Shown here: piece by piece, positions 295 to 20,993 of the stretch | How the letters are laid out: every line of letters starts with the position of its first letter | How positions within the stretch are numbered: the first letter of the stretch is position 1 | Assembly: GCA_041598895.1 (NCBI GenBank) | Contig: JBFHXQ010000001.1 | Location: 1-29,468 of the forward strand | DNA: 29,468 nt | Direction: 5' to 3' | Origin: Woeseiaceae bacterium | GTDB taxonomy: Bacteria; Pseudomonadota; Gammaproteobacteria; Steroidobacterales; Woeseiaceae | Translations under genes and position numbers: made by a program | The notes under the pieces: model-generated | What the model was told of the DNA's origin: nothing | Databases searched by the model: none | What the model saw: the letters and a program-made list of their open reading frames with translations, nothing else

Positions 295-696
295 ATGGAC
301 ATTGACCTTCGCGTCCTGCTTGTTGCGATGGTTATGTTGTTCGTCGTTGGTATGGCGATTTTTCTTCTGTGGAAACTGTTTGAACCGAAACGCGAAGGCG
401 AATCGCGGTCACTGATGGGGCTGCTCGTAAAGCCTGCAGCGATAATGGCCGTTGGCGTCAGCTTCATCGGTATTTGCATGATTTTTCCGCAGGTCCTGGT
501 TTGGACATTCGGCGCATTGGCAGTCATTGCAGTCATCTCGTTTTTTCGGATGCCGGCGTCACAGAAACGAGCTATCGGCGAAGCGGTTGGCCAACCAGAC
601 CCATCGTCGACATGGTCTACAGCCAGATTCGTCCTTGCCGTCTTTGTTGTGTTTGCAGCTGTCGTCGGATTACTCGCCTATTTTGTTCCGCAGTAG
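295..696 (+). CDS. Hypothetical integral membrane protein, about 4 TM helices, 133 aa
   Basis: ATG-TAG ORF with four long hydrophobic segments; lower GC than the rest of the window; no recognisable family motif. Confidence 0.65.
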   Translation: MDIDLRVLLVAMVMLFVVGMAIFLLWKLFEPKREGESRSLMGLLVKPAAIMAVGVSFIGICMIFPQVLVWTFGALAVIAVISFFRMPASQKRAIGEAVGQPDPSSTWSTARFVLAVFVVFAAVVGLLAYFVPQ

Positions 697-782
697 GACC
701 GCTTCTAGCCGAAAGTCGTTGCCATCGATTCCTCGGCGGCACGAGCCAGTCTGGTAGTCAATTAACGGCTCGACGCGGACAT
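697..782. repeat. Third degenerate unit (GACCGC TTCTAGCCGAAA GTCGTT, 697-720) and an isolated GCGGACAT right arm (775-782)
   Basis: CCGCTTCTAGCCGAAAG (699-715) closely resembles CCGCTCTTAGCCGGAAG (139-155); both start within 0-3 nt of a stop codon. Confidence 0.45.
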
Positions 783-879
783 CGTTGATGTTCTTGTATA
801 AAATCAACCAAAAGTCAGGTAACTATAAGCAGCCCCCGTCAAATGAAGTTGAATACGCCAAAAGAATAAAGGTGCCGAT

Positions 880-1272
880 ATGAGAATTTCGCTGTCCAGT
901 GTGTCAGTCTCGGATCAGGACCACGCATTGGAGTTCTACACTCAGAAATTGGGTTTCAACAAGAAAAAAGACATACCGCTGGGAGACGCCCGCTGGTTGA
1001 CGGTGACGTCACCGGAAGATGCGGACGGCCCCGAGTTGCTGCTGGAGCCGAACGCCGACTACCCTGCGATGAAGGCGCTGAAGGATGCATTGGTCAAAGA
1101 CGGCATACCGTTCACGGCGTTCGAGGTTGACGACGTCAACGCGGAGTACCGTCGCCTCAGCGAATTGGGGGTCAGGTTCACGCAGGAGCCCACCGACTTT
1201 CAAGGGGTAACGTTTGCGGTATTCGACGATACCTGCGGTAACCTGATTCAAATCTATCAGGAAGCCGATTAA
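880..1272 (+). CDS. VOC family protein (glyoxalase/bleomycin resistance-like), 130 aa
   Basis: Typical VOC pattern: VSDQDHALEFYTQKLGF ... RWLTV ... AFEVDDVNAEYRRL ... GVRF ... AVFDDTCGNLIQIYQ. Confidence 0.92.
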   Translation: MRISLSSVSVSDQDHALEFYTQKLGFNKKKDIPLGDARWLTVTSPEDADGPELLLEPNADYPAMKALKDALVKDGIPFTAFEVDDVNAEYRRLSELGVRFTQEPTDFQGVTFAVFDDTCGNLIQIYQEAD

Positions 1273-1286
1273 TCGGAGAGCAGACG

Positions 1287-1332
1287 GGTTGAACCGATTT
1301 TTGAACTACTAAAATCGGTTCGATCGCTTTTT
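1287..1332 (+). terminator. Probable intrinsic terminator between the convergent VOC and Rieske genes
   Basis: Perfect 11-bp stem GAACCGATTTT (1291-1301) / AAAATCGGTTC (1311-1321) with a 9-nt loop, extendable by wobble pairs, then TTTTT at 1328-1332. Confidence 0.6.
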
Positions 1333-1336
1333 CCCT

Positions 1337-2428
1337 CTAACCGGCTAGCGCCTCTTCGAGCTCCTGTGCGAGCTCGCCGGGTTCCGGCAGATTGCTCAGG
1401 TAATGCTTGCCGTTGACCTGCTCCTGAAATTCTTTCGCCTTTCTGCGCGGATTGTAGAACTGCTTGTACCAGATGCGGCCGCGGCGGAAGCTGCGCTCGA
1501 CCGGCAGCGCCATGATACTGAGTGCGGGCCGCTTGTTGCTCCAGATGTCGAAATCCTGTGCGAATGCCGCCAGCGCGCCTTCCTGGGCCAGTTTGGCATT
1601 TGCGATGTCTTCCTCTGTCGGCGGAGTGTTCGGTGCAAGTGCCAGGTTGTTGTGCCAGGCCTTGACGAGCCCGTCCTCGATCGGCGTATGAAAAATAAAT
1701 TCATAACCGTTCGCCTCCCCGAAGCGCTGCCGTGAAATCAGCATGCCCGGACCTGTGTACCAGGTCGACGTCGTCAGGTACGCGTTGTACATGCGATGGA
1801 AGCCGCCCTGGCGCTGGTAATACACGTGTCCATCGTATTCGTTCTCGAAGTATTCGCACGGCGCGCCGTGGGTCGGTCCGAGGTGGTGGGCATCGGCCAT
1901 GTTGTCGATGATTTCCTGCGGGTGAATCGGTATCTCGCCGAGATGGTCGTAGCTGCCGTTAACCCACTGGGGGTCGTCCCAGGCATCGAGATCCGGCGCG
2001 GCGTACTCGGGCTCGCCGTCCTCGGGATCGTGCCACATCAAGATCGCGCCGAGCTGCTCGACCACGTTATACGAGCGAAGCTTCGCGCCTTTCGGGCACG
2101 GTCCGTCGAAGTACGGTATGTCATCGCAGCGGCCATCCGGTGCGTAGCGCCAGCCATGATACGGACAGCGGATCGAGTCGCCTTCGATCTGCTCATTGTT
2201 CAGCACGATCGATGCGCTCGGACTCGCCGCAAGGTGCGTGCCCATGTGCGCGCAGTACGCGTCGAGCAACACGACCTTGCCGCTCTCGCCGCGATACAGC
2301 GCCATGTCCTTGCCGAAAAAGCGCACGGGAAGCGGGCCGTTATCGAGTTCCTTCGCCTCTGCGATCATGAACCAGCCTCTCGGGAACATGAACTCGCCGA
2401 GATCGAAGTCTTCTGCTTTTGCCTTCAA
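1337..2428 (-). CDS. kshA: Rieske non-heme iron monooxygenase, 3-ketosteroid 9-alpha-hydroxylase oxygenase (KshA)-like, 363 aa
   Basis: Rieske ligands CAH...CPYH; mononuclear Fe motif DNMADAHHLGPTH; FAQDFDIWSNK and WYKQFY match KshA C-terminal motifs; FPRGWF N-terminus. Start moved to TTG 2428, which has GGAGGA 8 nt upstream. Confidence 0.8.
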   Translation of the reverse strand: MKAKAEDFDLGEFMFPRGWFMIAEAKELDNGPLPVRFFGKDMALYRGESGKVVLLDAYCAHMGTHLAASPSASIVLNNEQIEGDSIRCPYHGWRYAPDGRCDDIPYFDGPCPKGAKLRSYNVVEQLGAILMWHDPEDGEPEYAAPDLDAWDDPQWVNGSYDHLGEIPIHPQEIIDNMADAHHLGPTHGAPCEYFENEYDGHVYYQRQGGFHRMYNAYLTTSTWYTGPGMLISRQRFGEANGYEFIFHTPIEDGLVKAWHNNLALAPNTPPTEEDIANAKLAQEGALAAFAQDFDIWSNKRPALSIMALPVERSFRRGRIWYKQFYNPRRKAKEFQEQVNGKHYLSNLPEPGELAQELEEALAG

Positions 2429-2486
2429 GGTTTGAGTCCTCCAGCGTGTGCACTCGCTGCGCGGCGGGCATCGTCGCACAGTGTCA

Positions 2487-3188
2487 TCATCGGTCGCCGA
2501 CGTCGCGCGCGCGTGCCGCTATACCGTCAACCGTGTAGTTGACGAAGTACCTGAAATTCGTGTCAAGATCGAAGTCGTCATCATCGAGGCTCAGCGCACT
2601 GAGCGTCGGCAGCTCCTCGGTACCGGTTTCGAGCTTTTCTGCGAGGCGCGCATACGTCGGAGTCGAACCACCCGCAATTTCCGCACGCGTCTGCAGTTCC
2701 TGGTGCACGTAGCCGACGACGTTGTTGACGAGGAAGGCGTGCGCGCGCGCCGCTTCGCGCGGGCTGAAGCCGAACTCGACGAGTATTTTGGTTGCTTTTT
2801 CGAGGCGCTCGAAATCGGGGTCGAGTGCGGCCTGCGCGTATTGCAGCAGCTCGGGATTGTCGAGGAACGCGCCGCGGTAGAAGCCGGCCAGTTCGACGAG
2901 CCAGTCCCGCCAGGACAGACCGGCCGGCGACGGCATGTCGCCGACGCGCTCGGAGAGATAGGACGCGTAAATGCGCCGCAGGCCGTCGAGCCCGCCCGTG
3001 TGGCGATAGAGCGTCGTCACGTTGACGTCGAGCTCGCCGGCCACGGCGTGCATGCTCACCTCGCCGCTTTTGCCAACCCGACGCACCGCCTGCTCGATCA
3101 GCTCCCCGTTGATAGACGGCGTGCGCCCGCGTCGCGACGTGCGGCCGACGTGGGCCGTCGACGCTGCCGATTGTCTGCTCTTCGCCAT
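2487..3188 (-). CDS. TetR/AcrR family transcriptional regulator with TetR_C-type ligand domain, 233 aa
   Basis: HTH VSMHAVAGELDVNVTTLYRH; C-terminal WRDWLVELAGFYRGAFLDNP...GFSPREAARAHAFLVNNVVG pattern; start set at ATG 3188, downstream of the palindrome and -10 box. Confidence 0.88.
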   Translation of the reverse strand: MAKSRQSAASTAHVGRTSRRGRTPSINGELIEQAVRRVGKSGEVSMHAVAGELDVNVTTLYRHTGGLDGLRRIYASYLSERVGDMPSPAGLSWRDWLVELAGFYRGAFLDNPELLQYAQAALDPDFERLEKATKILVEFGFSPREAARAHAFLVNNVVGYVHQELQTRAEIAGGSTPTYARLAEKLETGTEELPTLSALSLDDDDFDLDTNFRYFVNYTVDGIAARARDVGDR

Positions 3189-3206
3189 CGGCGAGACCTG
3201 CGTGAA

Positions 3207-3235
3207 CCAATTTTGCATTATAAATGCAAAATTGG
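3207..3235. promoter_or_regulatory. Operator palindrome 1 (CCAATTTTGCATT-ATA-AATGCAAAATTGG) overlapping a minus-strand TATAAT for tetR-kshA
   Basis: Perfect 13-bp inverted repeat; ATTATA at 3217-3222 is TATAAT on the minus strand; 19 nt upstream of the tetR start. Confidence 0.85.
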
Positions 3236-3258
3236 CGGTCGAACAGGTTCGTGCCGGA

Positions 3259-4287
3259 TCAGGGGCTGTCCGTTGCATCGGTCTGCCAGAAATCGGGGAC
3301 GCCTGGATCGGAGCGTTTGATGAAGCGCTGCAGGAAGCGGATGACGTCCGCAATTTCCGTCTCCGGGAAATCGGCGAGCAGCTGTTCCTCGATTGCTTTC
3401 GATCGCGCAAGCAGCGAGAGGTACAGCTCGCGCCCCTTGACCGTGATCGCGTACTGCATGCCGTCGTGCGTTTCGGTCACGAGACCTTTGCCGATCATCG
3501 CATGCAGCGTCCCGTGATCCGGTGCGCGTCCCGTATGCTCGAGACGCACCTGCAGTGCCTGCAGCGACATCGGCCCGCCAAGGCCGAGCAACGTCAGCGT
3601 CAGATATTCGCTCTCATCGATATCCGCGCTCGCCCACGCATCGCGCAGCGGTGCGGATGCCTGAAAATGGGCCCGCGCAATCAGGTAGAGAAAGAAGTTT
3701 TCGGTGAACGTCCCGTGCGCAACATCGACGCCGGCGCCCGGCTTTTCACCTTTGCCCTTACTCTTCGCCAATGCGTAGCTACCACCGTGAAAAACCAGCG
3801 GCGGCTCGTCGGTCTTCTCGTAGTCCAGGACCTGGCCCACGAAGATCAGGTGATCACCGCCCTCGTAGGTGTGCGTCGTCCGGCACTGAAAGCGAGCGGC
3901 ATACGCCGGCAGCAGCGGAACGTTGCCGACGCCGCGCGTCCACTCCTGACCCGCGAACTTGTCGCTGCCCGCACTTGCAAAGCGCGCGGACAGCGCCTCC
4001 TGCGACGCGCCGAGGACGTGCACACAGAAATGGCCCGACTCCCGAAACGCGGCCATCGACCGGGCACTCTTCGCGAGGGACCAGAGCACTAGCGGCGGGT
4101 CCAGCGACACCGAATTGAAGCTCGATGCCGTTACGCCCACCGGTTCTCCATCGGCGTCCAGCGTCGTAATGACCGTGACGCCCGTGGCAAACTGGCCGAG
4201 CGCCTGGCGAAAATCATGGGCATCTCGGGCGTTGATCGGGGCCTCCGGGGCGGCTTCGCTGAGGGGAGCAGCAAAGCTCACCCTCAT
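3259..4287 (-). CDS. Flavin reductase (HpaC/HsaB-like) fused to a C-terminal MarR-like winged-helix domain, 342 aa
   Basis: FRQALGQFATGVTVIT, TASSFNSVSLDPPLVLWS, EGGDHLIFVG and PPLVFHGGSY flavin-reductase motifs; the last 150 aa (3259-3708) are MarR-like (YLIARAH...KGLV...YAITVKGRELY). Start set at ATG 4287. Confidence 0.88.
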   Translation of the reverse strand: MRVSFAAPLSEAAPEAPINARDAHDFRQALGQFATGVTVITTLDADGEPVGVTASSFNSVSLDPPLVLWSLAKSARSMAAFRESGHFCVHVLGASQEALSARFASAGSDKFAGQEWTRGVGNVPLLPAYAARFQCRTTHTYEGGDHLIFVGQVLDYEKTDEPPLVFHGGSYALAKSKGKGEKPGAGVDVAHGTFTENFFLYLIARAHFQASAPLRDAWASADIDESEYLTLTLLGLGGPMSLQALQVRLEHTGRAPDHGTLHAMIGKGLVTETHDGMQYAITVKGRELYLSLLARSKAIEEQLLADFPETEIADVIRFLQRFIKRSDPGVPDFWQTDATDSP

Positions 4288-4388
4288 CGAAAAAACCGTG
4301 AATTTGATACGAATTAGGCTAGTTAGTTTGATATTATAGCCGATTATATACAATTTCTAGCTATTATTTTACGAATTTGGGAAAAAAC
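4288..4388. promoter_or_regulatory. AT-rich divergent promoter region
   Basis: About 29% GC by hand count; TTTGATA direct repeat (4303-4309 and 4328-4334); imperfect inverted repeat GGCTA(4317-4321)-N15-TAGCC(4337-4341). Confidence 0.55.
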
Positions 4389-5150
4389 GTGAGCGACCTT
4401 TCGAATCGCACAATCGTCGTCACCGGCGGCAGCCGCGGCCTGGGCCGCGGCATCGCGGAGGGTTTCCTCGCGGCCGGCGCCGCGGTCATCGTCTGCGGCC
4501 GAACCGAGCCCGACACCCTGCCGAGCGCCGGAAACGCATCCGCGCTGTTCGTCAAAGCCGACGTCCGGGATGCCGCCGACAGCCAGGCGCTGATCGATCA
4601 CGCGGTAAAGGCGACCGGCCGCCTCGACGTATTGGTGAACAATGCCGGCGGCAGTCCGGAGGTAGCGGCAGAAGACGCGTCACCCCGATTTACCGACGCG
4701 ATCATTCGCCTGAACCTGACGGCGCCCGCGGTGCTCAGTCAGCAGGCGTACGCGGCGCTGCGGGACAGCGGCGGCGGGTCGATCATCAACATCGCGAGCG
4801 TATCGGCGATTCGCCCGTCACCCGGCACGGCGGCCTACGGCGCGGCGAAAGCGGGACTCGTCAACCTGACTCGCTCCCTGGCACAGGAGTGGGCTCCCGA
4901 GGTGCGCGTCAACGTCATCATCGCCGGCCTGGCACGCACCGAGGCTGCCGGCGCTCACTACGGCGGCGAAGAGGGCATCCGCAATATTGAAAAGCGCATG
5001 CCGATGCGGCGCATGGCCACGCCGGGCGACATTGCCCGCGCGTGTCTGTACCTCGCGTCCGCCGAAGCCGCGTACGTGTCCGGCGCAACGCTCGAGGTAC
5101 ATGGCGGCGGCGAACCGCCCGCATTTCTCAGTCTGCAACACGATGCCTGA
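4389..5150 (+). CDS. Classical SDR oxidoreductase resembling the mycobacterial Rv3549c-type steroid-cluster SDR, about 253 aa
   Basis: TGGSRGLG, NNAGGSP, RPSPGTAAYGAAK, EWAPEVRVN and YVSGATLEVHGGGEPP match my recollection of Rv3549c. GTG 4389 preferred over TTG 4377. Confidence 0.88.
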   Translation: MSDLSNRTIVVTGGSRGLGRGIAEGFLAAGAAVIVCGRTEPDTLPSAGNASALFVKADVRDAADSQALIDHAVKATGRLDVLVNNAGGSPEVAAEDASPRFTDAIIRLNLTAPAVLSQQAYAALRDSGGGSIINIASVSAIRPSPGTAAYGAAKAGLVNLTRSLAQEWAPEVRVNVIIAGLARTEAAGAHYGGEEGIRNIEKRMPMRRMATPGDIARACLYLASAEAAYVSGATLEVHGGGEPPAFLSLQHDA

Positions 5151-5598
5151 CGCCGAGGCACCGGATCGCACGCGCATCCCCGACGGGTTCGAGCGGGTTA
5201 CGACGCACTCGGGATTCGGCCGCTACGTCGGCCCGTATCACATGGCCAGCGTGTCCGACGACGATGGCCATGTCGAATACTGGACGGGCCTCAAAGTCGA
5301 TGAGCGGCATGCTGGGCGCAACAGGGGCGAATACGGCCACGGCGGCATTCTTATGGTGCTGCTCGACGAAGTCATGGGCCGTGCAGCATCGCGATCGGTC
5401 GGCAAGGTATGCGTCACGGTGTCGATGCAGACGAATTTCTGCGCGCCGTTTTTCGACGGCGACTTCCTGCGCGCGACTGCCGACGTGCAGCGCAAGGGCC
5501 GCAGCCTGGTGTTCGTCGACGGCAAAGTGCTGTGCGGCGATTCACTGATCGGCACGGCGTCCGGCGTATGGATGAACAGCGGCCAGCCGCTGCCCTAG
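5143..5598 (+). CDS. PaaI-family hotdog thioesterase, 151 aa
   Basis: HGGILMVLLDEVMG motif and VTVSMQTNFCAP...RKGRSLVFVDG; ATG 5143 overlaps the SDR stop (ATGCCTGA), suggesting translational coupling. Confidence 0.85.
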   Translation: MPDAEAPDRTRIPDGFERVTTHSGFGRYVGPYHMASVSDDDGHVEYWTGLKVDERHAGRNRGEYGHGGILMVLLDEVMGRAASRSVGKVCVTVSMQTNFCAPFFDGDFLRATADVQRKGRSLVFVDGKVLCGDSLIGTASGVWMNSGQPLP

Positions 5599-5645
5599 AT
5601 CCCGGGAAAAATTTCGAATCGTCGCACGCGTCCGGGTGGGTCTCG

Positions 5646-6428
5646 CTACTTGAGCACCGCGGGCACGTGCAGTTCCGCGAGCTTGCCGCCGTCTACCGGC
5701 AGCTCGGCGCCCGTTATGAAACTCGCCTCGTCGCTCGCGAGAAAGAGTATCGCGGCGGCGAGCTCTTCGGGGCGGCCGCTGCGCTGCATCGGAATCGCCG
5801 CCTCGAGCGTCGCTAGGATTTCGGCATCGCCCTGCGCCGCTGCCTGATTGGCCGGCGTGTCGACAGACCCCGGGATCACCGTGTTGATGCGCACGTTATG
5901 GGCCGCCGCTTCCATTGCAGCGCAGCTCGTGAATCGGGTCAGCGCCGCCTTCGCGGCCGAATAGCCTGCAACGCCCTTCGCGGCGCGCGAGCCGCAGGAC
6001 GACGACACGTTCACGATTGCACCATTGCCTTGTTTGATCATGATCTTCATCGCCTCGCGCGTGCCGACGAACGTCGCATCCGCCGTGACCGAAAAATTCT
6101 TGCGCCAGTTGTCGACGCTCATCGTGGCGATCGGTCCGTGGCGCGTGACGGCCGCGTTGTTGACGAGCACGTCCAGGCGGCCATGCGTATCGGCCGTATC
6201 GTTGATCAGCCTGGCGAACGCGTCGAGATCCGTCAGGTCGATCTGCTGCGCCGTCACCTCACCGCCCTTTGCGCGTATCGCATCGCAGGCTTCTTCGAGC
6301 TTTTCCCGGCCGCGCGCGCAAATGACGACGTGAGCCCCCTCTCGTGCGAATGCTTCGGCCGCGGCCCGCCCGATGCCGTAGCTGCTACCTGTGACGATAA
6401 CGACCCTGCCTTCAAATCGTTTGTTCAT
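5646..6428 (-). CDS. Classical SDR oxidoreductase, 260 aa
   Basis: TGSSYGIG, LVNNAA, YSAAK and FITGAELPVDGG motifs; ATGA overlap with the stop of the upstream kstD-like gene. Confidence 0.92.
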   Translation of the reverse strand: MNKRFEGRVVIVTGSSYGIGRAAAEAFAREGAHVVICARGREKLEEACDAIRAKGGEVTAQQIDLTDLDAFARLINDTADTHGRLDVLVNNAAVTRHGPIATMSVDNWRKNFSVTADATFVGTREAMKIMIKQGNGAIVNVSSSCGSRAAKGVAGYSAAKAALTRFTSCAAMEAAAHNVRINTVIPGSVDTPANQAAAQGDAEILATLEAAIPMQRSGRPEELAAAILFLASDEASFITGAELPVDGGKLAELHVPAVLK

Positions 6429-8101
6429 GCGTTTGCCTCTTTTAGTATGTGCCGAGCCGCGAGGTAGCCGAACGCCATTGCGGGACCGAGCGTCGCGCCG
6501 GCGCCGACGTACTTGTCGCCCATGACGGAGGCCGACGTGTTGCCGGTCGCGTACAGGCCGGCAATCGGTTTACCGGACTCGTGCAGGACGCGCGCGTGCT
6601 CGTCGGTCAGGAGCCCACCTTTCGTTCCGATGTCGCCGGGATACAGCGGCAGCGCGTAAAACGGCGCGTCCCCGATACGTGCGATGCACGGATTCGGCGT
6701 GTTGCTCGCGTCGCCGTAATACTGGTCGTAAAAACTGTCGCCGCGATGAAAATCGGTGTCGATGCCGGTTTCGGCGAAGCGGTTGTTGCGCTCGATCGTG
6801 TCGTTGAGGCCTGCGGCATCGATGCCCGCGCGCGCGGCAAGCTCGTCCAGTGTAGCCGCTTTGAGCAGCAGCTCGCGGACCTTGCGTGGCAGGAAGCGAT
6901 CCGGCGTCGCCCAGCCGGGGCCGAGCGGGCCGAAGGGATACTTCTTGCGGAACGTGGCATCGAACACGACCCAGGACGGTATCGATTCCGCGTCGTACAT
7001 CGCCTTGCCGGATTCGAGGTAGGGCAATGCCTCGTTCGCGAAGCGCCGACCCGCCTTGTTGACGATGACCAGACCGGGCAGCGAACGCTCGGCGAAGATG
7101 CCCATCGGCCGCGGCCATCCCGGCACGTGCACGACCGGTATCCACCATGCGTGCTGCATCAGGTCGGTTGCGGCGCCGAGCTCAGTAGCCGCAGCGATCG
7201 CATCGCCGGTGTTGTTTTCCTGCGATGCCGTCCAGTCCGGCGTCGTCGGCTTTGGCAGCAGGCGCTCGCGCATCGCGGCATTGTGCTCGAAGCCGCCGGC
7301 CGCGAGGATCACGCCGTGCCTCGCAGTTATCTCAACGTTGCGGCCGTCCTTTGCGACGACTGCCCCGGTGACCGTGCCGTCGCGCTCGAGCAGCCGGGTC
7401 ATCGGGCAGTCAAGCCAGAGTTCGCCGCCGAGCTCTTTCAGCGACAGGTACAGGCTGCCGATCAGCGCATTGCCCTGCGTCAGGCGGCGCGAGCGACGGT
7501 CTTTGAGTCGGCCGGGCAGATCGAGGTAATAGGCAATAACGACTTTCAGCAGCGTGAGCCGCCAGCCCGGCGCCTGCGTCAGGAACTTGCGCGCCTCGGG
7601 AATGCTCATCGTGTAACGCCCCTGCGCCATCGCACCCCGCGGCTGCTCGCGCATGCGGTACATGTCGTCCCCGAGCTTCGCACCGTTCAGCACTTTCGGT
7701 GACTGCGTACGGTAGCCCCGTTTCGCGCCGGGCTGCTCCGTGTAATAGTCGGGGTACGGTATCGCTTCGTAACTCACGTGCGTGTTCCGCTGCAGGAATT
7801 CGAGCATCTCGGGCGCCGCGTCGATGAACGCGCGAATGCGCTGATCGGACACCTGCTCACCAATCATCGTCTTCATGTACAGGTAGGCATCGTCGGCAGA
7901 ATCGTCGACGCCGAGCCGCTTCGCGTTCATGCTCGCCGGAATCCAAAGACCCCCGCCGGATATTGCCGACGTGCCGCCATAGCGGTTGCTTTTCTCGACG
8001 ACGAGTACACGCGCACCGGAGTGCGCCGCGGTCACCGCCGCCGTGAGCGCGCCGGCTCCCGAGCCGACGATCAGGACGTCCGTTGCGTAGCTGCCGGTCA
8101 C
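6425..8101 (-). CDS. kstD: FAD-dependent 3-ketosteroid Delta-1-dehydrogenase (KstD)-like oxidoreductase, 558 aa
   Basis: GSGAG FAD loop, GGTSAISGGGLWIP, YPDYY, RFANEALPY, GDIGTKGGLLTD, YVGAGATLGPAM; tyrosines are present in the three motifs that carry the catalytic Tyr residues in KstD; steroid gene context. Confidence 0.8.
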   Translation of the reverse strand: MTGSYATDVLIVGSGAGALTAAVTAAHSGARVLVVEKSNRYGGTSAISGGGLWIPASMNAKRLGVDDSADDAYLYMKTMIGEQVSDQRIRAFIDAAPEMLEFLQRNTHVSYEAIPYPDYYTEQPGAKRGYRTQSPKVLNGAKLGDDMYRMREQPRGAMAQGRYTMSIPEARKFLTQAPGWRLTLLKVVIAYYLDLPGRLKDRRSRRLTQGNALIGSLYLSLKELGGELWLDCPMTRLLERDGTVTGAVVAKDGRNVEITARHGVILAAGGFEHNAAMRERLLPKPTTPDWTASQENNTGDAIAAATELGAATDLMQHAWWIPVVHVPGWPRPMGIFAERSLPGLVIVNKAGRRFANEALPYLESGKAMYDAESIPSWVVFDATFRKKYPFGPLGPGWATPDRFLPRKVRELLLKAATLDELAARAGIDAAGLNDTIERNNRFAETGIDTDFHRGDSFYDQYYGDASNTPNPCIARIGDAPFYALPLYPGDIGTKGGLLTDEHARVLHESGKPIAGLYATGNTSASVMGDKYVGAGATLGPAMAFGYLAARHILKEANA

Positions 8102-8109
8102 GAAAGCGC

Positions 8110-9252
8110 TCAGGCGATGTTGGCGTTGAGAACCGTGCGGGCGTCGGCGCCGATCCGGTCACCGACGGCGAGCGCCGCGTCAGCGGGCGTTCCGAGGTAG
8201 CGCTCGTTGTGCTTGCCCCAGAGGAAATAGCGATGAATCGGATAGGCGATGTCCTGCCCGATACCGCCATGCAGGTGCAGGATGATGTGTGCCGCTCTGT
8301 GGCCCGCCTCGCCGACCCAGAATTTCGCAACGCGCGCCGATAACGCGGCGTCGCGTCCGTGCTCGGTGTCATCGAGCGCGCGCCAGTAGACGCCTCTCAG
8401 GGACTCGATCGCCATGTAGGCGTTCGCCGCCTGCTGCGACACCGCCTGAAATGCGCCCAACGGACGGCCGAACTGCTTGCGCTGCGACACGTACTCCGCC
8501 GTCCGTCGCAGGCCCTCGCTGAGCACGCCGACCTGCAGCGCGCCGAGCGCAATAAAGGCATTCTGTTTTTGCGCCTCGACCAGCGCGCGCGCCGCATCGC
8601 CGCTCGCAATCAGATTCGCCTCCGCCAGCTCGCAGGCCGTGAACTCGACACGGCCGGCCGGCTCGCTGCTCGTCATTCGCTGTGCCGTTACGGTAACGCC
8701 GCTCGTGTCGGCCGGGCAGTGCAGCACGACGAGTTCGCCGTTGTCCGTCGGCGCCGTCACGACGAATCCGCCAGCCGCCGGCGCATAGGGCACGACGCCG
8801 CTGACGCCGTCGAGTGTCCAGCCTGTCCCGCGGCGGGATGCAGCGAGCGCATTCGGGGCAACGACACCGGCAGACGGCCGGACGGGGCAGAGAATCAGCT
8901 CCCCTCTTATTACGCGCGGCAAGACGTCTGCCTTCAGCGCATCGTTCCCGCCGTTGGCCAGCGGCATCGCGCCCTCGACAAGCGCTGCGATGAGCGGCAC
9001 CGGAGCAACGTACCTGCCCTGCAGCTCGAGGATCAGGCACAGCTCCGAGAGCGTCATGCCGAGACCGCCGTATTCCTCGTCAACGACGAGGCCCAGCATT
9101 CCGGAATCGGCCAGCTGCCGCCAGAGCTCACCGTGCATCGGCGCTTCCGATTCATACAGCGCCTTGAGCGCATCGTCGCTGCACAAATCGGCGAACACGC
9201 GCTCGGCGGCGTCGACGATCGCCTGCTGCTCCTCGCTGATGCTGAAGTCCAT
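8110..9252 (-). CDS. fadE27: Acyl-CoA dehydrogenase, non-catalytic partner subunit of a heteromeric steroid ACAD (FadE27/ChsE5-like), 380 aa
   Basis: RKQFGRPLGAFQAV and FWVGEAGHRAAHIILHLHGGIG...YPIHRY; no NxER or MCAD-type EG catalytic Glu visible; GGAGGG RBS; directly downstream of the catalytic subunit. Confidence 0.78.
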   Translation of the reverse strand: MDFSISEEQQAIVDAAERVFADLCSDDALKALYESEAPMHGELWRQLADSGMLGLVVDEEYGGLGMTLSELCLILELQGRYVAPVPLIAALVEGAMPLANGGNDALKADVLPRVIRGELILCPVRPSAGVVAPNALAASRRGTGWTLDGVSGVVPYAPAAGGFVVTAPTDNGELVVLHCPADTSGVTVTAQRMTSSEPAGRVEFTACELAEANLIASGDAARALVEAQKQNAFIALGALQVGVLSEGLRRTAEYVSQRKQFGRPLGAFQAVSQQAANAYMAIESLRGVYWRALDDTEHGRDAALSARVAKFWVGEAGHRAAHIILHLHGGIGQDIAYPIHRYFLWGKHNERYLGTPADAALAVGDRIGADARTVLNANIA

Positions 9253-9266
9253 CGTCGGCCCTCCGC

Positions 9267-10442
9267 TCAGACGATCGTGTTCGGCATGCCGAGGCCGAAA
9301 TTTGCGACCATGCAGCGCATGACTTCCATGACGCCGCCACCGACGGTATTGACCTGGCCGCTTCGGTAGTCGCGCTCGAGATCACCGTGGAATATTGCAC
9401 CGTCGCTCGGGTACTGCACGAGCGCATCTTCGCCGACCAGGTCCAGCAGTCCGCGCAGAACCTCGATCAATTCGAGCGTGTTCTGGAACTTGACGCCCGA
9501 TGCCAGTGCGACGTCGAGATTGCCCTCTTCGATCTGCGTGGCGGTGCGCAGGTTCAAAACCTCCATCGCTTCGAGCCGGCAATACAGCTCACCGACTTGC
9601 GCTCTGACGAGCGGATCCGCGAGTGGGCCGTCGCCAGCTTTGGATTTCCCGTCGAGGAATGCGACAACGCGCCGGAACTGCTTCGCACCGACGACCGTCA
9701 TTGCCGCGAGCGCAACGCGTTCGTGATTGAGCTGCGACGTGATCAGTTTCCAGCCGCCGTTAACCTCGCCGACGACGCGGTTCAGCGGCACCCGGACGTC
9801 TTCGTAATAGGTCATCGTCGTGTCGATGTCGCCGACAGTCCTGATCGGCGCCGACGAAAATCCGGGGTCGCTCGCATCGGCAATCAGTATCGTGATGCCG
9901 TCGGAAGGCCGTTTGACGTCTTTCGAGGTCCTGACCGCGAGCCAGACGTAATCGCAGTCCTGCCCCGAGCTCGTATACAGCTTGTTGCCGTTCACGACGT
10001 AGTGATCGCCGTCGCGCACGGCCGGCATTTTCAGCGAGCCCAGGTCCGTGCCGGCACCGGCCTCCGTATAGCCAACCGCGAAGATGCACTGTCCTCGAGC
10101 GATTTTCGGCAGGAAGAACCGCTTCTGCTCGTCGGTGCCGAAGCGCATTATTGCCGGCCCGACCGTGTTGACCGTGATCAGTGGGAAAGGCGCGTGCGCC
10201 GACCAGGCCTCCTCGAACAGGATGAGCTGCTCGACGGTCGTGTACTCCTTGCCGCCGAATTCCTTCGGCCACCCGAGCGTCAGGATGCCGTCCTGGCCGA
10301 GTCGCGCGATGATCTCGCGGAATTTCGGACCGCCCTCCCGGCCGACCACCTCGGCCACGACGTCGGGCGTCATGAGCGTCTGAAAATAGTCGCGCAGCTC
10401 CAGGCGAAGCTCCCGCTGCGCGGGGCTGAATCGGGTATCCAT
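9267..10442 (-). CDS. fadE26: Acyl-CoA dehydrogenase, catalytic subunit of a heteromeric steroid ACAD (FadE26/ChsE4-like), 391 aa
   Basis: LRLELRDYFQTLMTP, GWPKEFGG, GTDEQKRFFLP, GYTEAGAGTDL, DYVWLAVRT and QLNHERVAL (catalytic Glu). Start moved to ATG 10442. Confidence 0.82.
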   Translation of the reverse strand: MDTRFSPAQRELRLELRDYFQTLMTPDVVAEVVGREGGPKFREIIARLGQDGILTLGWPKEFGGKEYTTVEQLILFEEAWSAHAPFPLITVNTVGPAIMRFGTDEQKRFFLPKIARGQCIFAVGYTEAGAGTDLGSLKMPAVRDGDHYVVNGNKLYTSSGQDCDYVWLAVRTSKDVKRPSDGITILIADASDPGFSSAPIRTVGDIDTTMTYYEDVRVPLNRVVGEVNGGWKLITSQLNHERVALAAMTVVGAKQFRRVVAFLDGKSKAGDGPLADPLVRAQVGELYCRLEAMEVLNLRTATQIEEGNLDVALASGVKFQNTLELIEVLRGLLDLVGEDALVQYPSDGAIFHGDLERDYRSGQVNTVGGGVMEVMRCMVANFGLGMPNTIV

Positions 10443-10474
10443 CGGTCGTCGAGCCTCGGGATTGACGCCAAAAA

Positions 10475-10503
10475 CGAATTTTGCAATTATAATGCAAAAT
10501 TCG
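10475..10503. promoter_or_regulatory. Operator palindrome 2 (CGAATTTTGCA-ATTATAA-TGCAAAATTCG) in the divergent ACAD / DUF35-ltp2 promoter
   Basis: Perfect 11-bp arms with a 7-nt spacer; shares AATTTTGCA-N7-TGCAAAATT with 3207-3235; TATAAT on both strands (+10488-10493, -10486-10491). Confidence 0.88.
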
Positions 10504-10518
10504 CGTGCGAAACACAAC

Positions 10519-10932
10519 ATGGGCAGCCAGACGCCAGGACGCATCCGTCCCGTCGAAAATTACGACTCGCAGCACTACTGGCAGGGTTTGCGCGACGGCA
10601 AGCTCCTTCTGCAGGCGTGCGCGGACTGCGGTGCGCTCCGGCATCCGCCGCAGCCGATGTGCGAACACTGCCAGAGCCTCGACTGGACGACCCTCGAATC
10701 CGCGTGTCGCGGCGCGATTCACAGCTATACCGTCATCTACTACCCGGAGATTCCCCCGTTCGACTACCCGAACGCGATCGTGCTCGTCGACCTCGACGAA
10801 GGCGTGCGCATCGCGTCGCAGCTCGTCAACTGCGATCCGCACGACATCGACATCGGCAAGCGCGTCGTCGCAAACATCGTCGAGGTCGAGCCGGGACTGG
10901 CGCTGCCCCTGTTCGAACTCGTGGATCACTGA
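10519..10932 (+). CDS. Stand-alone DUF35 protein (Zn-ribbon + OB fold), likely aldolase partner, 137 aa
   Basis: CADC...CEHC zinc ribbon, G-x-IHSYTVIY, VLVDLDEGVRIASQL, DIDIGKRV; stop 2 nt before the ltp2 start. Confidence 0.9.
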   Translation: MGSQTPGRIRPVENYDSQHYWQGLRDGKLLLQACADCGALRHPPQPMCEHCQSLDWTTLESACRGAIHSYTVIYYPEIPPFDYPNAIVLVDLDEGVRIASQLVNCDPHDIDIGKRVVANIVEVEPGLALPLFELVDH

Positions 10933-10934
10933 CC

Positions 10935-12116
10935 GTGTCGGCGAGCGGCCACAGGCAGGCGACGATCGTCGGCATCGGCACGACCGAGTATTCGAAGGAC
11001 TCGGGACGCACCGAGATGCGACTTGCCTGCGAGGCGGCGCTGGCAGCCGTCGAAGACGCCGGTCTCGGCGGCGCCGACGTCGACGGCATCGCGACGTTTT
11101 CGATGGACAATAATTTCGAAATAGAGGTGCACCGCCAGATCGGCGGCCGCGAGCTGCGCTACTTTTCGCGCACGGAGTACGGCGGCGGCGCCGCGCTTGG
11201 GCCATTACATCATGCCTACGGCGCGCTGGCGTCAGGTCAGTGCGAGACCGTGCTGATCTACCGGGCAATGAACGAGCGCTCGGGCCTGCGCTTCGGCGGC
11301 GGCCGGATCATGAGTATGAATGCGCTGAACCCGGACATGATCCATTTCAGCCACTATTTTCCGACCGGCTTCATGACGCCCGCGAGCTGGCTTGCAATGA
11401 GCGCGCGACGTTACATGCACCTGTATGGCGCGACGTCGGAAGACTTCGGACGCGTCGCCGTGTCGCTCAGGGATTTCGCGGCGACGAACCCGGCGGCATT
11501 CTACTACCAGCGCCCGATCACGCTCGACGACCATCAACGTTCGCGCATGATCGCGGACCCGCTGCGGCTCTTCGACTGCTGCCAGGAAAGCGACGGCGCC
11601 GTAGCCTTCGTGGTCACGACGGCGGAACGAGCCCGGGATTTGCGAACGGATGGCGTGCGGATAGCTGCCGTACGACAGTGCGCACTGTCCAGCTCACGCC
11701 AGGTCACGGCTTTCTACGGCGAGGATATTTCGCGGTTTCCCGAGTTCGACGCGATGGCCGGCGACCTCTACGCGGCGGCAGACGTCACGGCCGACGACAT
11801 AGACGTCGCGTGCCTGTACGACCACTTCACACCCTCGATTCTCCCGCAGCTCGAGTCGTTCGGCTTCTGCCCGATCGGCGAGGCGAAGGACTTCATCCGC
11901 GACGGACATATCAGCCGCGGCGGCAGGCTTCCGGTCAACACAAACGGCGGCCAGATCGGGGAGGCCTATATTCACGGCCTCAACGGCATCGTCGAGATCG
12001 TGAGACAGTTCCGCGGCGCAGCCTGCAATCAGCTGGACGCGGTCGAGCATGCGCTGGTGACCGCCGGCTCCGGGGTGCCGACCGGTGCCGCGATACTGAG
12101 CCGCCCGGGCCCGTAA
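10935..12116 (+). CDS. ltp2: Thiolase-superfamily steroid side-chain retro-aldolase (Ltp2/Sal-like), 393 aa
   Basis: IVGIGTTEYSKDSGR, YGGGAA in place of the thiolase Cys, YRAMNERSG, PLRLFDCCQESDGA, LYDHFTP and GEAYIHG (both catalytic Tyr), LVTAGSGVPT. GTG start at 10935. Confidence 0.9.
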   Translation: MSASGHRQATIVGIGTTEYSKDSGRTEMRLACEAALAAVEDAGLGGADVDGIATFSMDNNFEIEVHRQIGGRELRYFSRTEYGGGAALGPLHHAYGALASGQCETVLIYRAMNERSGLRFGGGRIMSMNALNPDMIHFSHYFPTGFMTPASWLAMSARRYMHLYGATSEDFGRVAVSLRDFAATNPAAFYYQRPITLDDHQRSRMIADPLRLFDCCQESDGAVAFVVTTAERARDLRTDGVRIAAVRQCALSSSRQVTAFYGEDISRFPEFDAMAGDLYAAADVTADDIDVACLYDHFTPSILPQLESFGFCPIGEAKDFIRDGHISRGGRLPVNTNGGQIGEAYIHGLNGIVEIVRQFRGAACNQLDAVEHALVTAGSGVPTGAAILSRPGP

Positions 12117-12127
12117 GAGGAAACGCC

Positions 12128-13093
12128 GTGCAAGCGCAGTCGCAGCCAGTACAACAGCCGCCCGCATTTCTGAGCACGCTCAGGAACGAACACCGCTATT
12201 TTCAGTCCCTGCTCGACATTTGTCGCGACCACATAGATCGTCTGGCCGCCGGTTCCGACACAGACCTCGACGTACTCGAGGATGCACTGCGTTATCTCGC
12301 AGAGTATCCGGAGGATTACCATCACCCCCGTGAAGACCTGCTGTTCGACCGGCTGCGCTCTGTCGACCGGAGCAGCGGCCCCATTCTCGACAAGCTGCTC
12401 TCCGGTCACGACACCATCCATACGGACAGTAATGACCTGCATCACCTCGTAATGCGGCTCAACAACGGGGAGACGCTGGACCGCTCGCTGCTCGCCGCAA
12501 AACTGGCGCGTTTCGTCGACGGCTACGAAACGCACATGCGCGATGAAAACGAAGTGGTCTTCACTCGCGCAGAACAAGAGCTGGATCCGGAGGACTGGGA
12601 GGACCTGGATGCGGCGCTCGAACACGTCGAGGATCCCCTGTTCGGGACCCGGGTGCGGCGCCGGTACCGGCGCCTCGCTGCGGTTCTCGAAGCCAGGCTC
12701 GGCGTCGCGCGGCGCGATCTGATCATCGCCGAATATCTGAGCCTCGGCGCCGTCGTCGATACGATGATCAAGCTGTCCGAGACCGGCATCAGTATCGGAT
12801 ACGTCGCATTCGACCGCAGCGCCAAGACCTGGCGCGAAAACCTGGCGACGACGCGCAAGGGGCTGGCGTCCGGCCGGGTAACCGATGCAGCAAAACTGCC
12901 GCTGAAGCTTCTGCACAACACGCTCGGCAACATCCGAGGCGGTTTTTCCGACTCCTCGAAGCTCCTGCGCGACGCGGTCACGGACATTCGTACACCGAAC
13001 GACATGCGCCTGGATACGCTCAAGGAGTTACTGCGGGACGAGTGGGGCAGGCGCGAGCCTCGTAAGCGGCGCTCCGCAAAGCAGAACCGGTAG
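12128..13093 (+). CDS. Hemerythrin/HHE-domain protein with a roughly 130-aa C-terminal extension, 321 aa
   Basis: H22, H65-x3-E69 (YHHPRED), H94 and H136-x3-E140 (HMRDE) metal-ligand pattern plus DPLFG; GAGG RBS 7 nt before GTG 12128; 11 nt after the ltp2 stop. Confidence 0.82.
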   Translation: MQAQSQPVQQPPAFLSTLRNEHRYFQSLLDICRDHIDRLAAGSDTDLDVLEDALRYLAEYPEDYHHPREDLLFDRLRSVDRSSGPILDKLLSGHDTIHTDSNDLHHLVMRLNNGETLDRSLLAAKLARFVDGYETHMRDENEVVFTRAEQELDPEDWEDLDAALEHVEDPLFGTRVRRRYRRLAAVLEARLGVARRDLIIAEYLSLGAVVDTMIKLSETGISIGYVAFDRSAKTWRENLATTRKGLASGRVTDAAKLPLKLLHNTLGNIRGGFSDSSKLLRDAVTDIRTPNDMRLDTLKELLRDEWGRREPRKRRSAKQNR

Positions 13094-18201: not shown

Positions 18202-19641
18202 CGCAACGCCGTCATCGCGCTGCCCCAGCGCCTTCAGGTACATCGCACGCACGTCTGCAACATGCTCGTCCAGCGTTTCACGTGTCCATGCACTCGTGTC
18301 GACGGGCGGCAGCACTTCGACCTCGACGGTTGCCCGGCGATAGACGAATTCACCCTTCGGGGCAACGTCGATGGCATTGTGAATCACGATCGGCACGATC
18401 GGCACGCCGGCCTGCATGGCGAGGTGGAACGCACCCTTTTTGAACGGGCCGACTTTGGGGGACACGGTACGGGTCCCTTCGGGCGCAATGAGCACCGATT
18501 TCTTCTGCTTGCGAATGACGTCGACCAGCGGCCTCATCGCCTCGATCGCACTCGACGTGTTGTCGCGATCGATCAGCACCGAACCACCGAATTCCGCAAT
18601 TTTCTTCATCAGCGGAAACTTGCCGATCTCCGCCTTGCCAACGCTCGCAATGTCCTTGCGCAGCAGCTTTGTCGTGATGATCATGTCGGCCTTGCTCTGG
18701 TGATTGAAGATGAACACGGCCGGGCGCTGCTCCCAGAGATAGCGCTCGCCCGTAACGTTCATTTCGAGGCCGACGAGAGCGCTCGCGACATCTGCGAACA
18801 GAGACGCCGAAAAATTCTGGGCCTCCCGTTTCGATCCGCTCAGCGCCCAGATTGGCAGCGCCGCCGCGTACACCGGGATGAGGCTCATGTCGGCAGCGAA
18901 CGCGCGCAGGTAGTCAGCCGCGGCGGGCCGGCTGCGGCTCTTGAAGCGGCGCACGGGCCAGCCGCGTTCCTCCGCGATTGCGGCGAGCTTCGAGTTCGGG
19001 TTCAGGGGTTGCGGATGGCCGACGCTCTCGAGCAGCTCGATATCGTCGTCGCTGTCCGTATAGAAAAAACTCTGCTCGAGATCGACGCCCCGTTCTGCCG
19101 CCAGCGTTTCGGCGGCGATGACCTTGCCCTCGCCCCAGCAAAGCGGCCTTACTATGTCGCCGGTGAACTCGCCGTTTGCGACCTCGAGACGACTGCACAG
19201 GACGTGCTCGATATCCAGGTCGCGAGCCGCCGGTGCAACCTGATACGGCGTTGCCGACGAGACGATTGCAACCGTGTGACCCTTGTCGAGGTGAGCTTTT
19301 ACGAGCGCCCGCGACTCAGGATAGATGAGCCGCGCAATTTGTTTTTCGTAGACCTCCTCGCCGAATTCGACGTAGTCGTCCTCGGGGATACCCTTCATCA
19401 GTTTCGCGCTCGCCGACATCAGCCCGGAGAAGCCGATCTTGCGGAGGCTGAAACTGCCGATCGTCGAAACCGTTTCGACGAAGTCGCTGACCGACATTTT
19501 TCCCTGCTTGATCTGTTCCTTGAAAAACTCGGTCGCGGAGAATCCGGCCATTAGCGTACCGTCGAAATCGAAAAATGCACCGATCTCGGGGCCATCCGGC
19601 GCTTTTCGAATCGAACGCGTTACATCGGCATACAAGGCCAT
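18055..19641 (-). CDS. plsC: Bifunctional HAD-IB hydrolase / 1-acylglycerol-3-phosphate acyltransferase with a basic C-terminal tail, 528 aa
   Basis: HAD motifs DFDGT, IVSSAT, GEGK and YTDSDDD; AGPAT motifs NHQSKAD, PEGTR and FKKGAFH. Confidence 0.92.
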   Translation of the reverse strand: MALYADVTRSIRKAPDGPEIGAFFDFDGTLMAGFSATEFFKEQIKQGKMSVSDFVETVSTIGSFSLRKIGFSGLMSASAKLMKGIPEDDYVEFGEEVYEKQIARLIYPESRALVKAHLDKGHTVAIVSSATPYQVAPAARDLDIEHVLCSRLEVANGEFTGDIVRPLCWGEGKVIAAETLAAERGVDLEQSFFYTDSDDDIELLESVGHPQPLNPNSKLAAIAEERGWPVRRFKSRSRPAAADYLRAFAADMSLIPVYAAALPIWALSGSKREAQNFSASLFADVASALVGLEMNVTGERYLWEQRPAVFIFNHQSKADMIITTKLLRKDIASVGKAEIGKFPLMKKIAEFGGSVLIDRDNTSSAIEAMRPLVDVIRKQKKSVLIAPEGTRTVSPKVGPFKKGAFHLAMQAGVPIVPIVIHNAIDVAPKGEFVYRRATVEVEVLPPVDTSAWTRETLDEHVADVRAMYLKALGQRDDGVATARKKPAKKRAAEGPKRPAKKSVATGSKRPGKKRAAAGNGKSVTPDTG

Positions 19642-20933: not shown

Positions 20934-20993
20934 GAATAATGCCATGTTTTTGTAGTCTTAACGGCATGAAATGGCCTTAATTCGCAAAAATTA

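Follow-up and report, generated by a model that had tools for sequence, protein, structure and literature searches.

Steroid operons of Mycobacterium and Rhodococcus are controlled by KstR (Rv3574) and KstR2 (Rv3557c), two autoregulating TetR-family repressors that act at palindromes in divergent promoters. The KstR box is the 14-bp sequence TnnAACnnGTTnnA, and structures of both proteins exist in the PDB. The KstR2 box is AnCAAGnnCTTGnT (PMC3068626). Here, we analyse a stretch of 29,468 nucleotides from a Woeseiaceae bacterium (assembly GCA_041598895.1, contig JBFHXQ010000001.1, positions 1 to 29,468; hereafter the window), in which a gene for a TetR-family protein, two palindromes with identical arms and neighbouring operons of predicted sterol genes point to a further regulator of this class. 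Our reading, to which we assign a probability of roughly 80%, is that the protein is a ligand-released TetR repressor that binds TTTGCA-N7-TGCAAA and controls the sterol genes of the window.

SRTF1 from Pimelobacter/Nocardioides simplex is a steroid-responsive TetR-family repressor encoded beside a ketosteroid dehydrogenase gene; its binding sites are a palindrome before the gene that encodes it and a few more positions within an island of steroid genes, and steroid acts as the releasing ligand (PMC7062782). Its operator is a 22-bp palindrome, AACTAGCC...GGCTAGTT (PMC7062782 supplement). EdcR of Caenibius tardaugens is a proteobacterial TetR-type repressor of an oestrogen cluster; the protein has a TetR_C_11 domain and the operator TnnCnnTACnAnTnGTAnnGnnA, and its operators overlap -10 boxes (PMC8700777). 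What is known of steroid degradation by Proteobacteria, marine ones included, comes mostly from inventories of genes (PMC4810484, PMC5790920). Our search of the literature on regulation found nothing beyond KstR and KstR2 in Actinobacteria, regulators from Comamonas, EdcR and SRTF1, and no described regulator or motif of the kind reported here in Gammaproteobacteria, strain HdN1 or Ketobacter. To our knowledge, no regulator of the sterol pathway has been characterised in Proteobacteria.

Results

Two palindromes with identical arms overlap promoter-like sequences

The candidate regulator and its two candidate sites are located as follows:

Putative operator O1: positions 3207 to 3235, no strand; perfect 29-bp palindrome (13-3-13) with the core AATTTTGCA-N7-TGCAAAATT at 3209 to 3233
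Putative operator O2: positions 10475 to 10503, no strand; 29-bp palindrome (11-7-11) with the core AATTTTGCA-N7-TGCAAAATT at 10477 to 10501
Predicted TetR-family repressor, 233 amino acids: positions 2487 to 3188, minus strand; TetR(B/D)-like helix-turn-helix (HTH) and TetR_C_1 ligand domain; proposed binder of O1 and O2

An earlier note on this DNA had described two 29-bp palindromes that share 18 arm bases and the same 7-nt spacer, one of them directly upstream of the TetR gene. The coordinates and the identity of the 9-nt arms, AATTTTGCA and TGCAAAATT, are borne out, as is the position of O1 upstream of the TetR gene, with 18 nt between it and the start codon (ATG, 3188, minus strand); the spacers agree in length, but differ in their letters (TTATAAA in O1 and ATTATAA in O2). 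With up to three mismatches allowed, AATTTTGCA-N7-TGCAAAATT occurs twice in the window, compared with 0.00 expected from 100 dinucleotide shuffles. O1 and O2 are also its only matches across the whole 2.43-Mb metagenome-assembled genome (MAG; 280 contigs, the window being contig C1), a genome-wide count that rests on a 62%-complete bin. A position weight matrix assigns 41-44 bits to the two sites and at most 5 bits to the rest of the window, scores that are partly circular given that the matrix was built from sites picked with the consensus of the window; independent evidence comes from positional conservation and from an unseeded word count (see below). The next-best N7 match in the MAG reaches 23 bits and is part of an unrelated repeat resembling repetitive extragenic palindromic (REP) elements.

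Both sites are 72% A+T, in a genome with 61-63% G+C. On the minus strand, which encodes tetR, the centre of O1 reads TATAAT (3222-3217) and is likely the -10 box of tetR-kshA. O2 lies mid-way in a divergent intergenic region of 76 bp, between the start codons of an acyl-CoA dehydrogenase (ACAD) gene (10442, minus strand) and a DUF35 gene (10519, plus strand), and its core alone fills 25 of these 76 bp. The centre of O2, ATTATAAT, reads TATAAT on either strand, and a predicted promoter, TTGACG-17-AATTAT (10462-10490, plus strand), overlaps the site. Overlap with -10-like boxes, as seen for O1 and O2, is the usual geometry for repression and, given the central position of O2 and the TATAAT on both strands, one bound repressor would silence both divergent operons.

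A TetR-family protein with a TetR_C_1 ligand domain

The C-terminal part of the protein (residues 92-225) matches TetR_C_1 (PF02909) at 25.4 bits, above the cut-off of 21, in keeping with the TetR_C-type ligand domain that had been proposed for it. A profile of 23 homologues aligns residues 27-180 with residues 9-167 of TetR(B) (E=2.8e-10). The AlphaFold2 model (pLDDT 85) places the HTH helices at residues 28-41, 46-53 and 57-64, with pLDDT values of about 95, followed by C-terminal helices that span residues 93-231, and its top structural matches in Foldseek are TetR(D), at a probability of 1.00, plus ActR and SimR. Profile, model and structural matches agree on the N-terminal three-helix HTH of the TetR family, and the model on the all-helical ligand and dimerisation domain. 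The recognition-helix residues T58, T59, R62 and H63 are invariant among the homologues and the segment VNVTTLYRH is invariant or nearly so, which fits a conserved half-site.

The motif accompanies the TetR gene in distant genomes

A large protein collection holds 105 homologues of this TetR, and a scan of species-representative genomes recovered 33 loci with orthologues at 42-77% identity. Their hosts are marine gammaproteobacterial MAGs (labelled Thiotrichales, Arenicella or Lysobacterales), Ketobacteraceae, Ketobacter, strain HdN1, three Mycobacterium/Mycolicibacterium genomes and one Binatia MAG. In most of 30 loci, TTGCA-N7-TGCAA is found ~50-340 nt upstream of the TetR gene, with an N8 instead of an N7 spacer in the three Mycobacterium loci and the Binatia locus. 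Among the loci arranged as in the window, L020 carries AATTTTGCA-N7-TGCAAAATT 49 nt upstream of the TetR orthologue and L024 a degenerate counterpart; Ketobacteraceae-type loci have TTTTGCA-N7-TGCAAAT-like sites 100-340 nt upstream, and the mycobacterial loci ATTGCA-N8-TGCAAT before the gene.

Because both the weighted scan and the weight matrix had been seeded with the consensus of the window, we also ran a seed-free hexamer count on 24 non-redundant orthologues, comparing the 350 nt before each gene with the rest of its locus. The top words were TTGCAA (10-fold; 19 of the 24 loci) and TGCAAA (6.5-fold; 21 of 24). O1, the orthologue sites and this enrichment together place a candidate palindromic operator at or close to the regulator's own promoter, as is typical of the TetR family. 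The information-rich conserved positions are those of the TTGCA arms and not those of the -10-like centre.

Two side observations concern the same regions. The mycobacterial orthologues (~50% identity) have TTGCA-N8-TGCAA on either side of the gene and adjoin genes for a cytochrome P450 and an ERG2/sigma-1-receptor-like protein of the sterol isomerase family (L046, 9974-10880, 11326-12780 and 12609-13316; also L047 and L048). In addition, an extra, third or fourth, TTGCA half-site is placed 11-12 bp off the main palindrome in many of the putative operators of Ketobacteraceae-type genomes (for example L036, 8052/8063; L028, 7888/7899; L032, 9891/9902; L043, 9743/9755). Given this 11-bp phase and the length of the palindrome (25-29 bp), one might speculate that two dimers sit side by side, and cooperatively, on one operator.

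Probable targets belong mostly to one functional class

The genes of the window that are placed under O1 and O2 are:

KshA-like Rieske oxygenase: positions 1337 to 2479, minus strand; KshA_C (PF19298, E=2.4e-49) and a Rieske domain
ACAD alpha subunit, ChsE4/FadE26-like: positions 9267 to 10442, minus strand; Pfam ACAD domains; first gene of the minus-strand operon at O2
ACAD beta subunit, ChsE5/FadE27-like: positions 8110 to 9252, minus strand; best NCBIfam match PimC/PimD; orthologues found beside those of alpha
3-Ketosteroid delta1-dehydrogenase (KstD), AcmB type: positions 6425 to 8101, minus strand; PDB 7P18 matched over the full length
Short-chain dehydrogenase/reductase (SDR): positions 5646 to 6428, minus strand; last gene of the ACAD-ACAD-KstD-SDR operon, with a 4-nt overlap with kstD
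DUF35 / ChsH2-C-type protein with OB-fold and zinc ribbon: positions 10519 to 10932, plus strand; PF01796 and PF12172; first gene of the plus-strand operon at O2
Ltp2-like thiolase-fold protein, steroid side-chain aldolase type: positions 10935 to 12116, plus strand; NF005892, 559 bits (cut-off 469)
Hemerythrin-domain protein: positions 12128 to 13093, plus strand; PF01814, E=1.8e-12; 11 nt after ltp2

The kshA gene lies 7 nt downstream of tetR, and the two are probably co-transcribed. Gaps of 14, 8 and -4 nt on the minus strand and of 2 and 11 nt on the plus strand make a four-gene and a three-gene operon likely at O2, the hemerythrin gene being probably the third gene of the DUF35-ltp2 operon.

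Eight loci of the window type (L019-L026) are syntenic, with the order Ltp2-DUF35 <> ACAD-ACAD-KstD-SDR ... SDR <> flavin reductase-TetR-KshA, and every one of them that covers the region of O2 has an equivalent site there (L020 at 2656, 43 bits; L024 at 2674, 31 bits; L026 at 1920, 37 bits). The Ketobacteraceae/HdN1-type loci are built differently: TetR is surrounded by a KshA_C Rieske gene, two SDR genes, a KstD orthologue (55-59% identity), an acyl-CoA synthetase gene and a second TetR gene. Strong sites (30-40 bits) are found before TetR, in the divergent region between KstD and the acyl-CoA synthetase, so that a KstD-SDR-SDR operon is preceded by a site, and before the KshA-like gene. The flavin reductase fusion of the window-type loci is absent from the Ketobacteraceae-type and mycobacterial loci, and the window in turn has no tandem second TetR, which leaves the TetR described here as the sole regulator common to all locus groups. 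The second TetR gene (TetR_N plus TetR_C_1) always follows the first in the Ketobacteraceae/HdN1-type loci (L036, 10670-11464; L040, 10813-11520; L032, 10812-11558).

Sites are also found away from the TetR locus. The pattern TWTGCA-N7-TGCAWA occurs 6, 6, 8, 9 and 2 times in five genomes, namely HdN1 (G041), a Ketobacteraceae chromosome (G042), G043, G044 and G045, versus 0, 0, 1, 1 and 0 times for the reversed control, and eight regions with such distant sites were inspected. A site precedes orthologues of the ACAD pair (alpha 62-63%, beta 48-55% identity) in HdN1, G042 and G043, the KstD orthologue (57%) in G042 and G044, and SDR-KshA-family genes, encoding KshA paralogues, in HdN1, G042 and G044. 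The beta orthologue adjoins alpha in L058, L059 and L062. In G043, a site stands before a ChsH2-like gene (MaoC plus DUF35) that is followed by Ltp2 (69%) and a copy of the plus-strand SDR of the window (63%). One site in HdN1 is shared with a divergent resistance-nodulation-division (RND) efflux operon. Sites before orthologous genes in genomes far apart are the standard comparative evidence for a regulon, and they support, at the level of comparative genomics, the earlier proposal that this TetR would repress tetR-kshA, fadE26-fadE27-kstD-SDR and DUF35-ltp2-hemerythrin.

As a separate observation on G044, the gene divergent from TetR in L040 (7143-9527, minus strand) encodes an MMPL/RND-type transporter with weak matches to sterol-sensing domains, and a pair of operators lies in the intergenic region that it shares with TetR.

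Probable steroid identity of the candidate target enzymes

The KstD-like protein matches AcmB, a cholest-4-en-3-one delta1-dehydrogenase, over its full length (7P18, E=4e-167), and Rhodococcus KstD1 at E=1e-89 (4C3X). For the first ACAD, the best PDB matches are 6WY8_B (E=2e-104) and ChsE4-ChsE5 (4X28_A, E=6e-96), the next being a generic ACAD at E=5e-32, and for the Rieske protein they are KshA5 (4QDC, E=1e-36) and KshA of M. tuberculosis (2ZYL, E=4e-32). Three enzyme types that mark aerobic steroid degradation by the 9,10-seco route, namely KstD, KshA and a heteromeric ACAD like ChsE4/5, have predicted representatives in the window. Candidates for ring cleavage are encoded elsewhere in the MAG:

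hsaA-hsaD-hsaE-hsaG-hsaF-hsaC-like cluster plus ltp: locus L055 (G000:C2:4000-23000), genes from 660 to 9684; ltp matches NF004715 at 701 bits

In this run on contig C2, the order is hsaA, hsaD, hydratase, acetaldehyde dehydrogenase, aldolase and hsaC-like gene, followed by the ltp gene. HsaA, HsaC and HsaD score 309, 271 and 192 bits, below the equivalog cut-offs of 400-450, and the cluster comes from a 62%-complete bin to which its contig and that of the window are provisionally assigned. The only HsaB-like partner seen for this HsaA is the flavin reductase of the window. Adjacent HsaA- and HsaC-like genes (E<=1e-75) are present in all five other TetR-bearing genomes tested and in none of 14 controls at E<=1e-30.

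No TetR motif was found at the hsa-like clusters, neither on contig C2 of the MAG nor, with the strict pattern, in G041-G043. The expectation of the earlier note that a genome-wide scan would place the motif at hsaACD, kshB and transporter genes thus failed in this MAG, and the regulon appears to comprise side-chain degradation, KstD and KshA, but not ring cleavage.

Given these assignments, the alternative that deserves most attention is one in which the TetR-operator pair is real, but serves the degradation of an alicyclic or isoprenoid compound other than a steroid, for instance a fragment of a hopanoid, a cyclic terpenoid or a naphthenic-type acid, and responds to an effector that is not a steroid. 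The KstD models of NCBIfam score the window protein at 557-577 bits where 788-789 would be needed, and cyclohexanone-carboxylate dehydrogenases belong to the family as well; together with the sub-cut-off HsaA, HsaC and HsaD and with PimC/PimD as best NCBIfam matches of both ACADs, this would allow for another alicyclic substrate. Between the two locus groups, the identity of KshA amounts to no more than about 30%, and HdN1 and Ketobacter are known as degraders of hydrocarbons (alkanes). Even so, we consider a non-steroid substrate unlikely: all three enzymes have steroid enzymes as their best solved relatives, ahead of others by a large distance as in the case of ChsE4, adjacent HsaA/HsaC-like genes occur in the MAG as well as in the five other TetR-bearing genomes, and the mycobacterial homologues adjoin the P450 and ERG2-like genes described above.

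Other repeats and neighbouring genes

Two further genes of the window lie between tetR and the KstD operon:

Flavin reductase with C-terminal extension: positions 3259 to 4287, minus strand; PF01613; architecture of the C1 reductase of p-hydroxyphenylacetate hydroxylase
SDR: positions 4377 to 5150, plus strand

The entire length of the flavin reductase is matched by NF045919, though with 201 bits the score stays under the cut-off; the HsaB model NF045630 gives 148 bits. Its gene is directly upstream of tetR, and read-through from its promoter into tetR is possible. The divergent region between the SDR and flavin reductase genes contains a second conserved word, AATTCGTAAAA (AATTCG[T/C]AAAA), in the window and in all eight syntenic loci, usually twice per region and about 55-60 bp apart. 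In the window it is found at 4367-4377 (minus strand; region 4288-4376) and again at 20979-20989, upstream of a gene for a TonB-dependent receptor. A second regulator may act at this word, and the MarR-like domain of the flavin reductase fusion is one possible candidate.

The MAG also contains a family of REP-like extragenic palindromes with arms GGGGACATTCCGG / CCGGAATGTCCCC, of which 27 arms were counted. Copies lie at C74:6474-6524, C148:2575-2625 and 3175-3225, C83:8089-8139 and about 15 other places, and in scans with the weight matrix some of them resemble the TetR motif through an enclosed TTTATGCRCAT...ATGYGCATAAA. Matches on C74 and C148 (15-23 bits) were rejected as operators, being the inner part of such a ~50-bp palindrome with arms GGGGACATTCCGG; another match, at 17278 on C8 (18.5 bits) and before an Lrp/AsnC-type gene, has one good arm only and was judged a chance occurrence. 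The remaining genes of the window contig encode GpsA, WS/DGAT, a PlsB-like protein, a HAD-acyltransferase, an esterase, the TonB-dependent receptor, a major facilitator superfamily (MFS) transporter, an acyl-CoA synthetase, an ACAD and a GMC oxidoreductase.

Discussion

From the computed sites, their co-conservation with the TetR gene and their conserved targets, we infer binding, repression (rather than activation) and a ligand. A TetR dimer, or possibly a pair of dimers, would occupy TTTGCA-N7-TGCAAA and, lying over the -10 region, block RNA polymerase. At O1, occupancy would cover the likely -10 box of tetR-kshA, resulting in negative autoregulation and in control of the 9-alpha-hydroxylase, whereas at O2 it would cover TATAAT on both strands, so that the ACAD pair-KstD-SDR operon and the DUF35-Ltp2-hemerythrin operon would both be off. 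The genes under control would provide for the shortening of the sterol side chain and, within the 9,10-seco pathway, the first two reactions on rings A and B. Release would follow when the TetR_C_1 domain binds a sterol-derived substrate or intermediate of the pathway, which may be a 3-ketosteroid or a steroid-CoA thioester.

Several observations weigh against this reading. Pfam TetR_N is not reported for the protein itself at E<=0.001; precomputed annotation assigns it to the homologues P0070, P0072 and P0073. Good sites are missing from three of the syntenic loci (L019, L021 and L022), and the only candidate in L025 is a variant with an N6 spacer in the SDR1-flavin reductase region. A search for the TetR gave no hit in 40 relatives or in 300 genomes of the same order, and one for KshA_C genes none in 60 genomes of the same genus; all comparative evidence thus comes from other lineages, and the steroid block was either gained horizontally as an island or sits on a mis-binned contig. 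For a PlsB-like gene of the window contig, one genome of the same genus contains a homologue with 66% identity, which does not settle whether the contig is native or mis-binned.

Finally, a genome of the same genus, G017, carries a perfect AATTTTGCA-N7-TGCAAAATT with a G+C-rich spacer (C9:4872-4896, which is L016 1501-1525), 25 nt upstream of a DUF4124 gene and amid genes for an extracytoplasmic function (ECF) sigma factor, an anti-sigma factor, YbjQ and an S41 peptidase. Such a site has a chance expectation of ~1e-4 over the genomes searched, and in G017, a genome with 93% completeness, we found neither a homologue of the TetR nor, around the site, any steroid genes.

This orphan site could suggest that another protein binds the motif, for example a global regulator or the MarR-like C-terminal domain of the flavin reductase, with the TetR acting elsewhere; in support of the latter, the flavin reductase fusion always adjoins TetR in window-type loci. 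However, the motif is equally conserved in the Ketobacteraceae/HdN1-type and mycobacterial loci that lack the fusion, and the different repeat AATTCGTAAAA in the SDR1-flavin reductase region is a better candidate for the site of a second regulator. The distribution is also not the scatter at unrelated genes that the earlier note had named as the mark of a global regulator: there are 2-9 sites per genome, and most of those inspected stand at one functional class of genes. We therefore regard a different binder as very improbable. Least probable of all, with hardly any weight in our view, is that the palindromes are no operators but promoter cores rich in A+T, terminator hairpins or members of a repeat family, as their TATAAT-like centres and the REP-like family of the MAG might suggest, given that conservation resides in the TTGCA arms, the REP family differs in arms (GGGGACATTCCGG) and distribution, no terminator-like feature is predicted at O1 or O2, and the motif tracks the TetR gene across classes and phyla.

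A steroid-responsive TetR acting at O1 and O2 would be a new subfamily, with a new operator and a textbook TetR mechanism, within a well-known kind of system, and its value therefore lies in annotation and tools rather than in concept. More tentatively, and at somewhat less than even odds, it could be the founding example of a widespread TetR_C_1-type sterol-sensing family that is present in marine gammaproteobacterial MAGs, Ketobacteraceae and HdN1, and, with the N8 spacer, in some mycobacteria and Binatia, and that defines an 'upper' sterol regulon of Proteobacteria. If true, HdN1 and Ketobacter would be regulated sterol degraders. The 25-bp operator and its conserved targets offer a way to delimit the side-chain/KstD/KshA regulon in uncultured Gammaproteobacteria and mark hydrocarbon degraders of the HdN1 and Ketobacter type as probable steroid users, and the pair of regulator and operator might add a candidate part for steroid biosensors of the kind built on SRTF1 and EdcR.

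TetR(B/D), ActR and SimR control antibiotic efflux pumps and are released from DNA by rigid polycyclic ligands. These members of the TetR_C_1 subfamily are nearest to the protein described here by sequence profile and fold, at about 20% identity; their sensing of rigid polycyclic molecules would agree with a steroid ligand, although it is no proof of one, and tetO, a palindrome of 15 bp, is unrelated to TTTGCA-N7-TGCAAA. SRTF1 is actinobacterial, and the comparison with it, made at the level of the operator, shows a sequence unlike TTTGCA-N7-TGCAAA. EdcR differs in its operator, too, and targets the edc oestrogen genes instead of KstD, KshA and side-chain genes.

The earlier note had also set the operator apart from the KstR and KstR2 boxes, and this distinction holds, since neither box is found at the steroid promoters. 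The window has no match to AnCAAGnnCTTGnT and a single one to TnnAACnnGTTnnA, at 19611 in a coding region unrelated to steroid genes, and at least one such match is seen in 13 of 100 shuffles. Likewise, the names KstR and KstR2 occur in none of the 36 PDB sequence matches of the TetR at E<=0.01 and in none of its top 50 structural matches. With TTTGCA-N7-TGCAAA, a predicted footprint of 25-29 bp and a ligand domain of the TetR_C_1 type, the system of the window differs from KstR and KstR2 in its parts; what it would share with them is the design, that is, an autoregulating TetR-family repressor of steroid operons, a palindrome in a divergent promoter and a pathway split into separately regulated blocks, the block here being side-chain degradation, KstD and KshA without the hsa genes.

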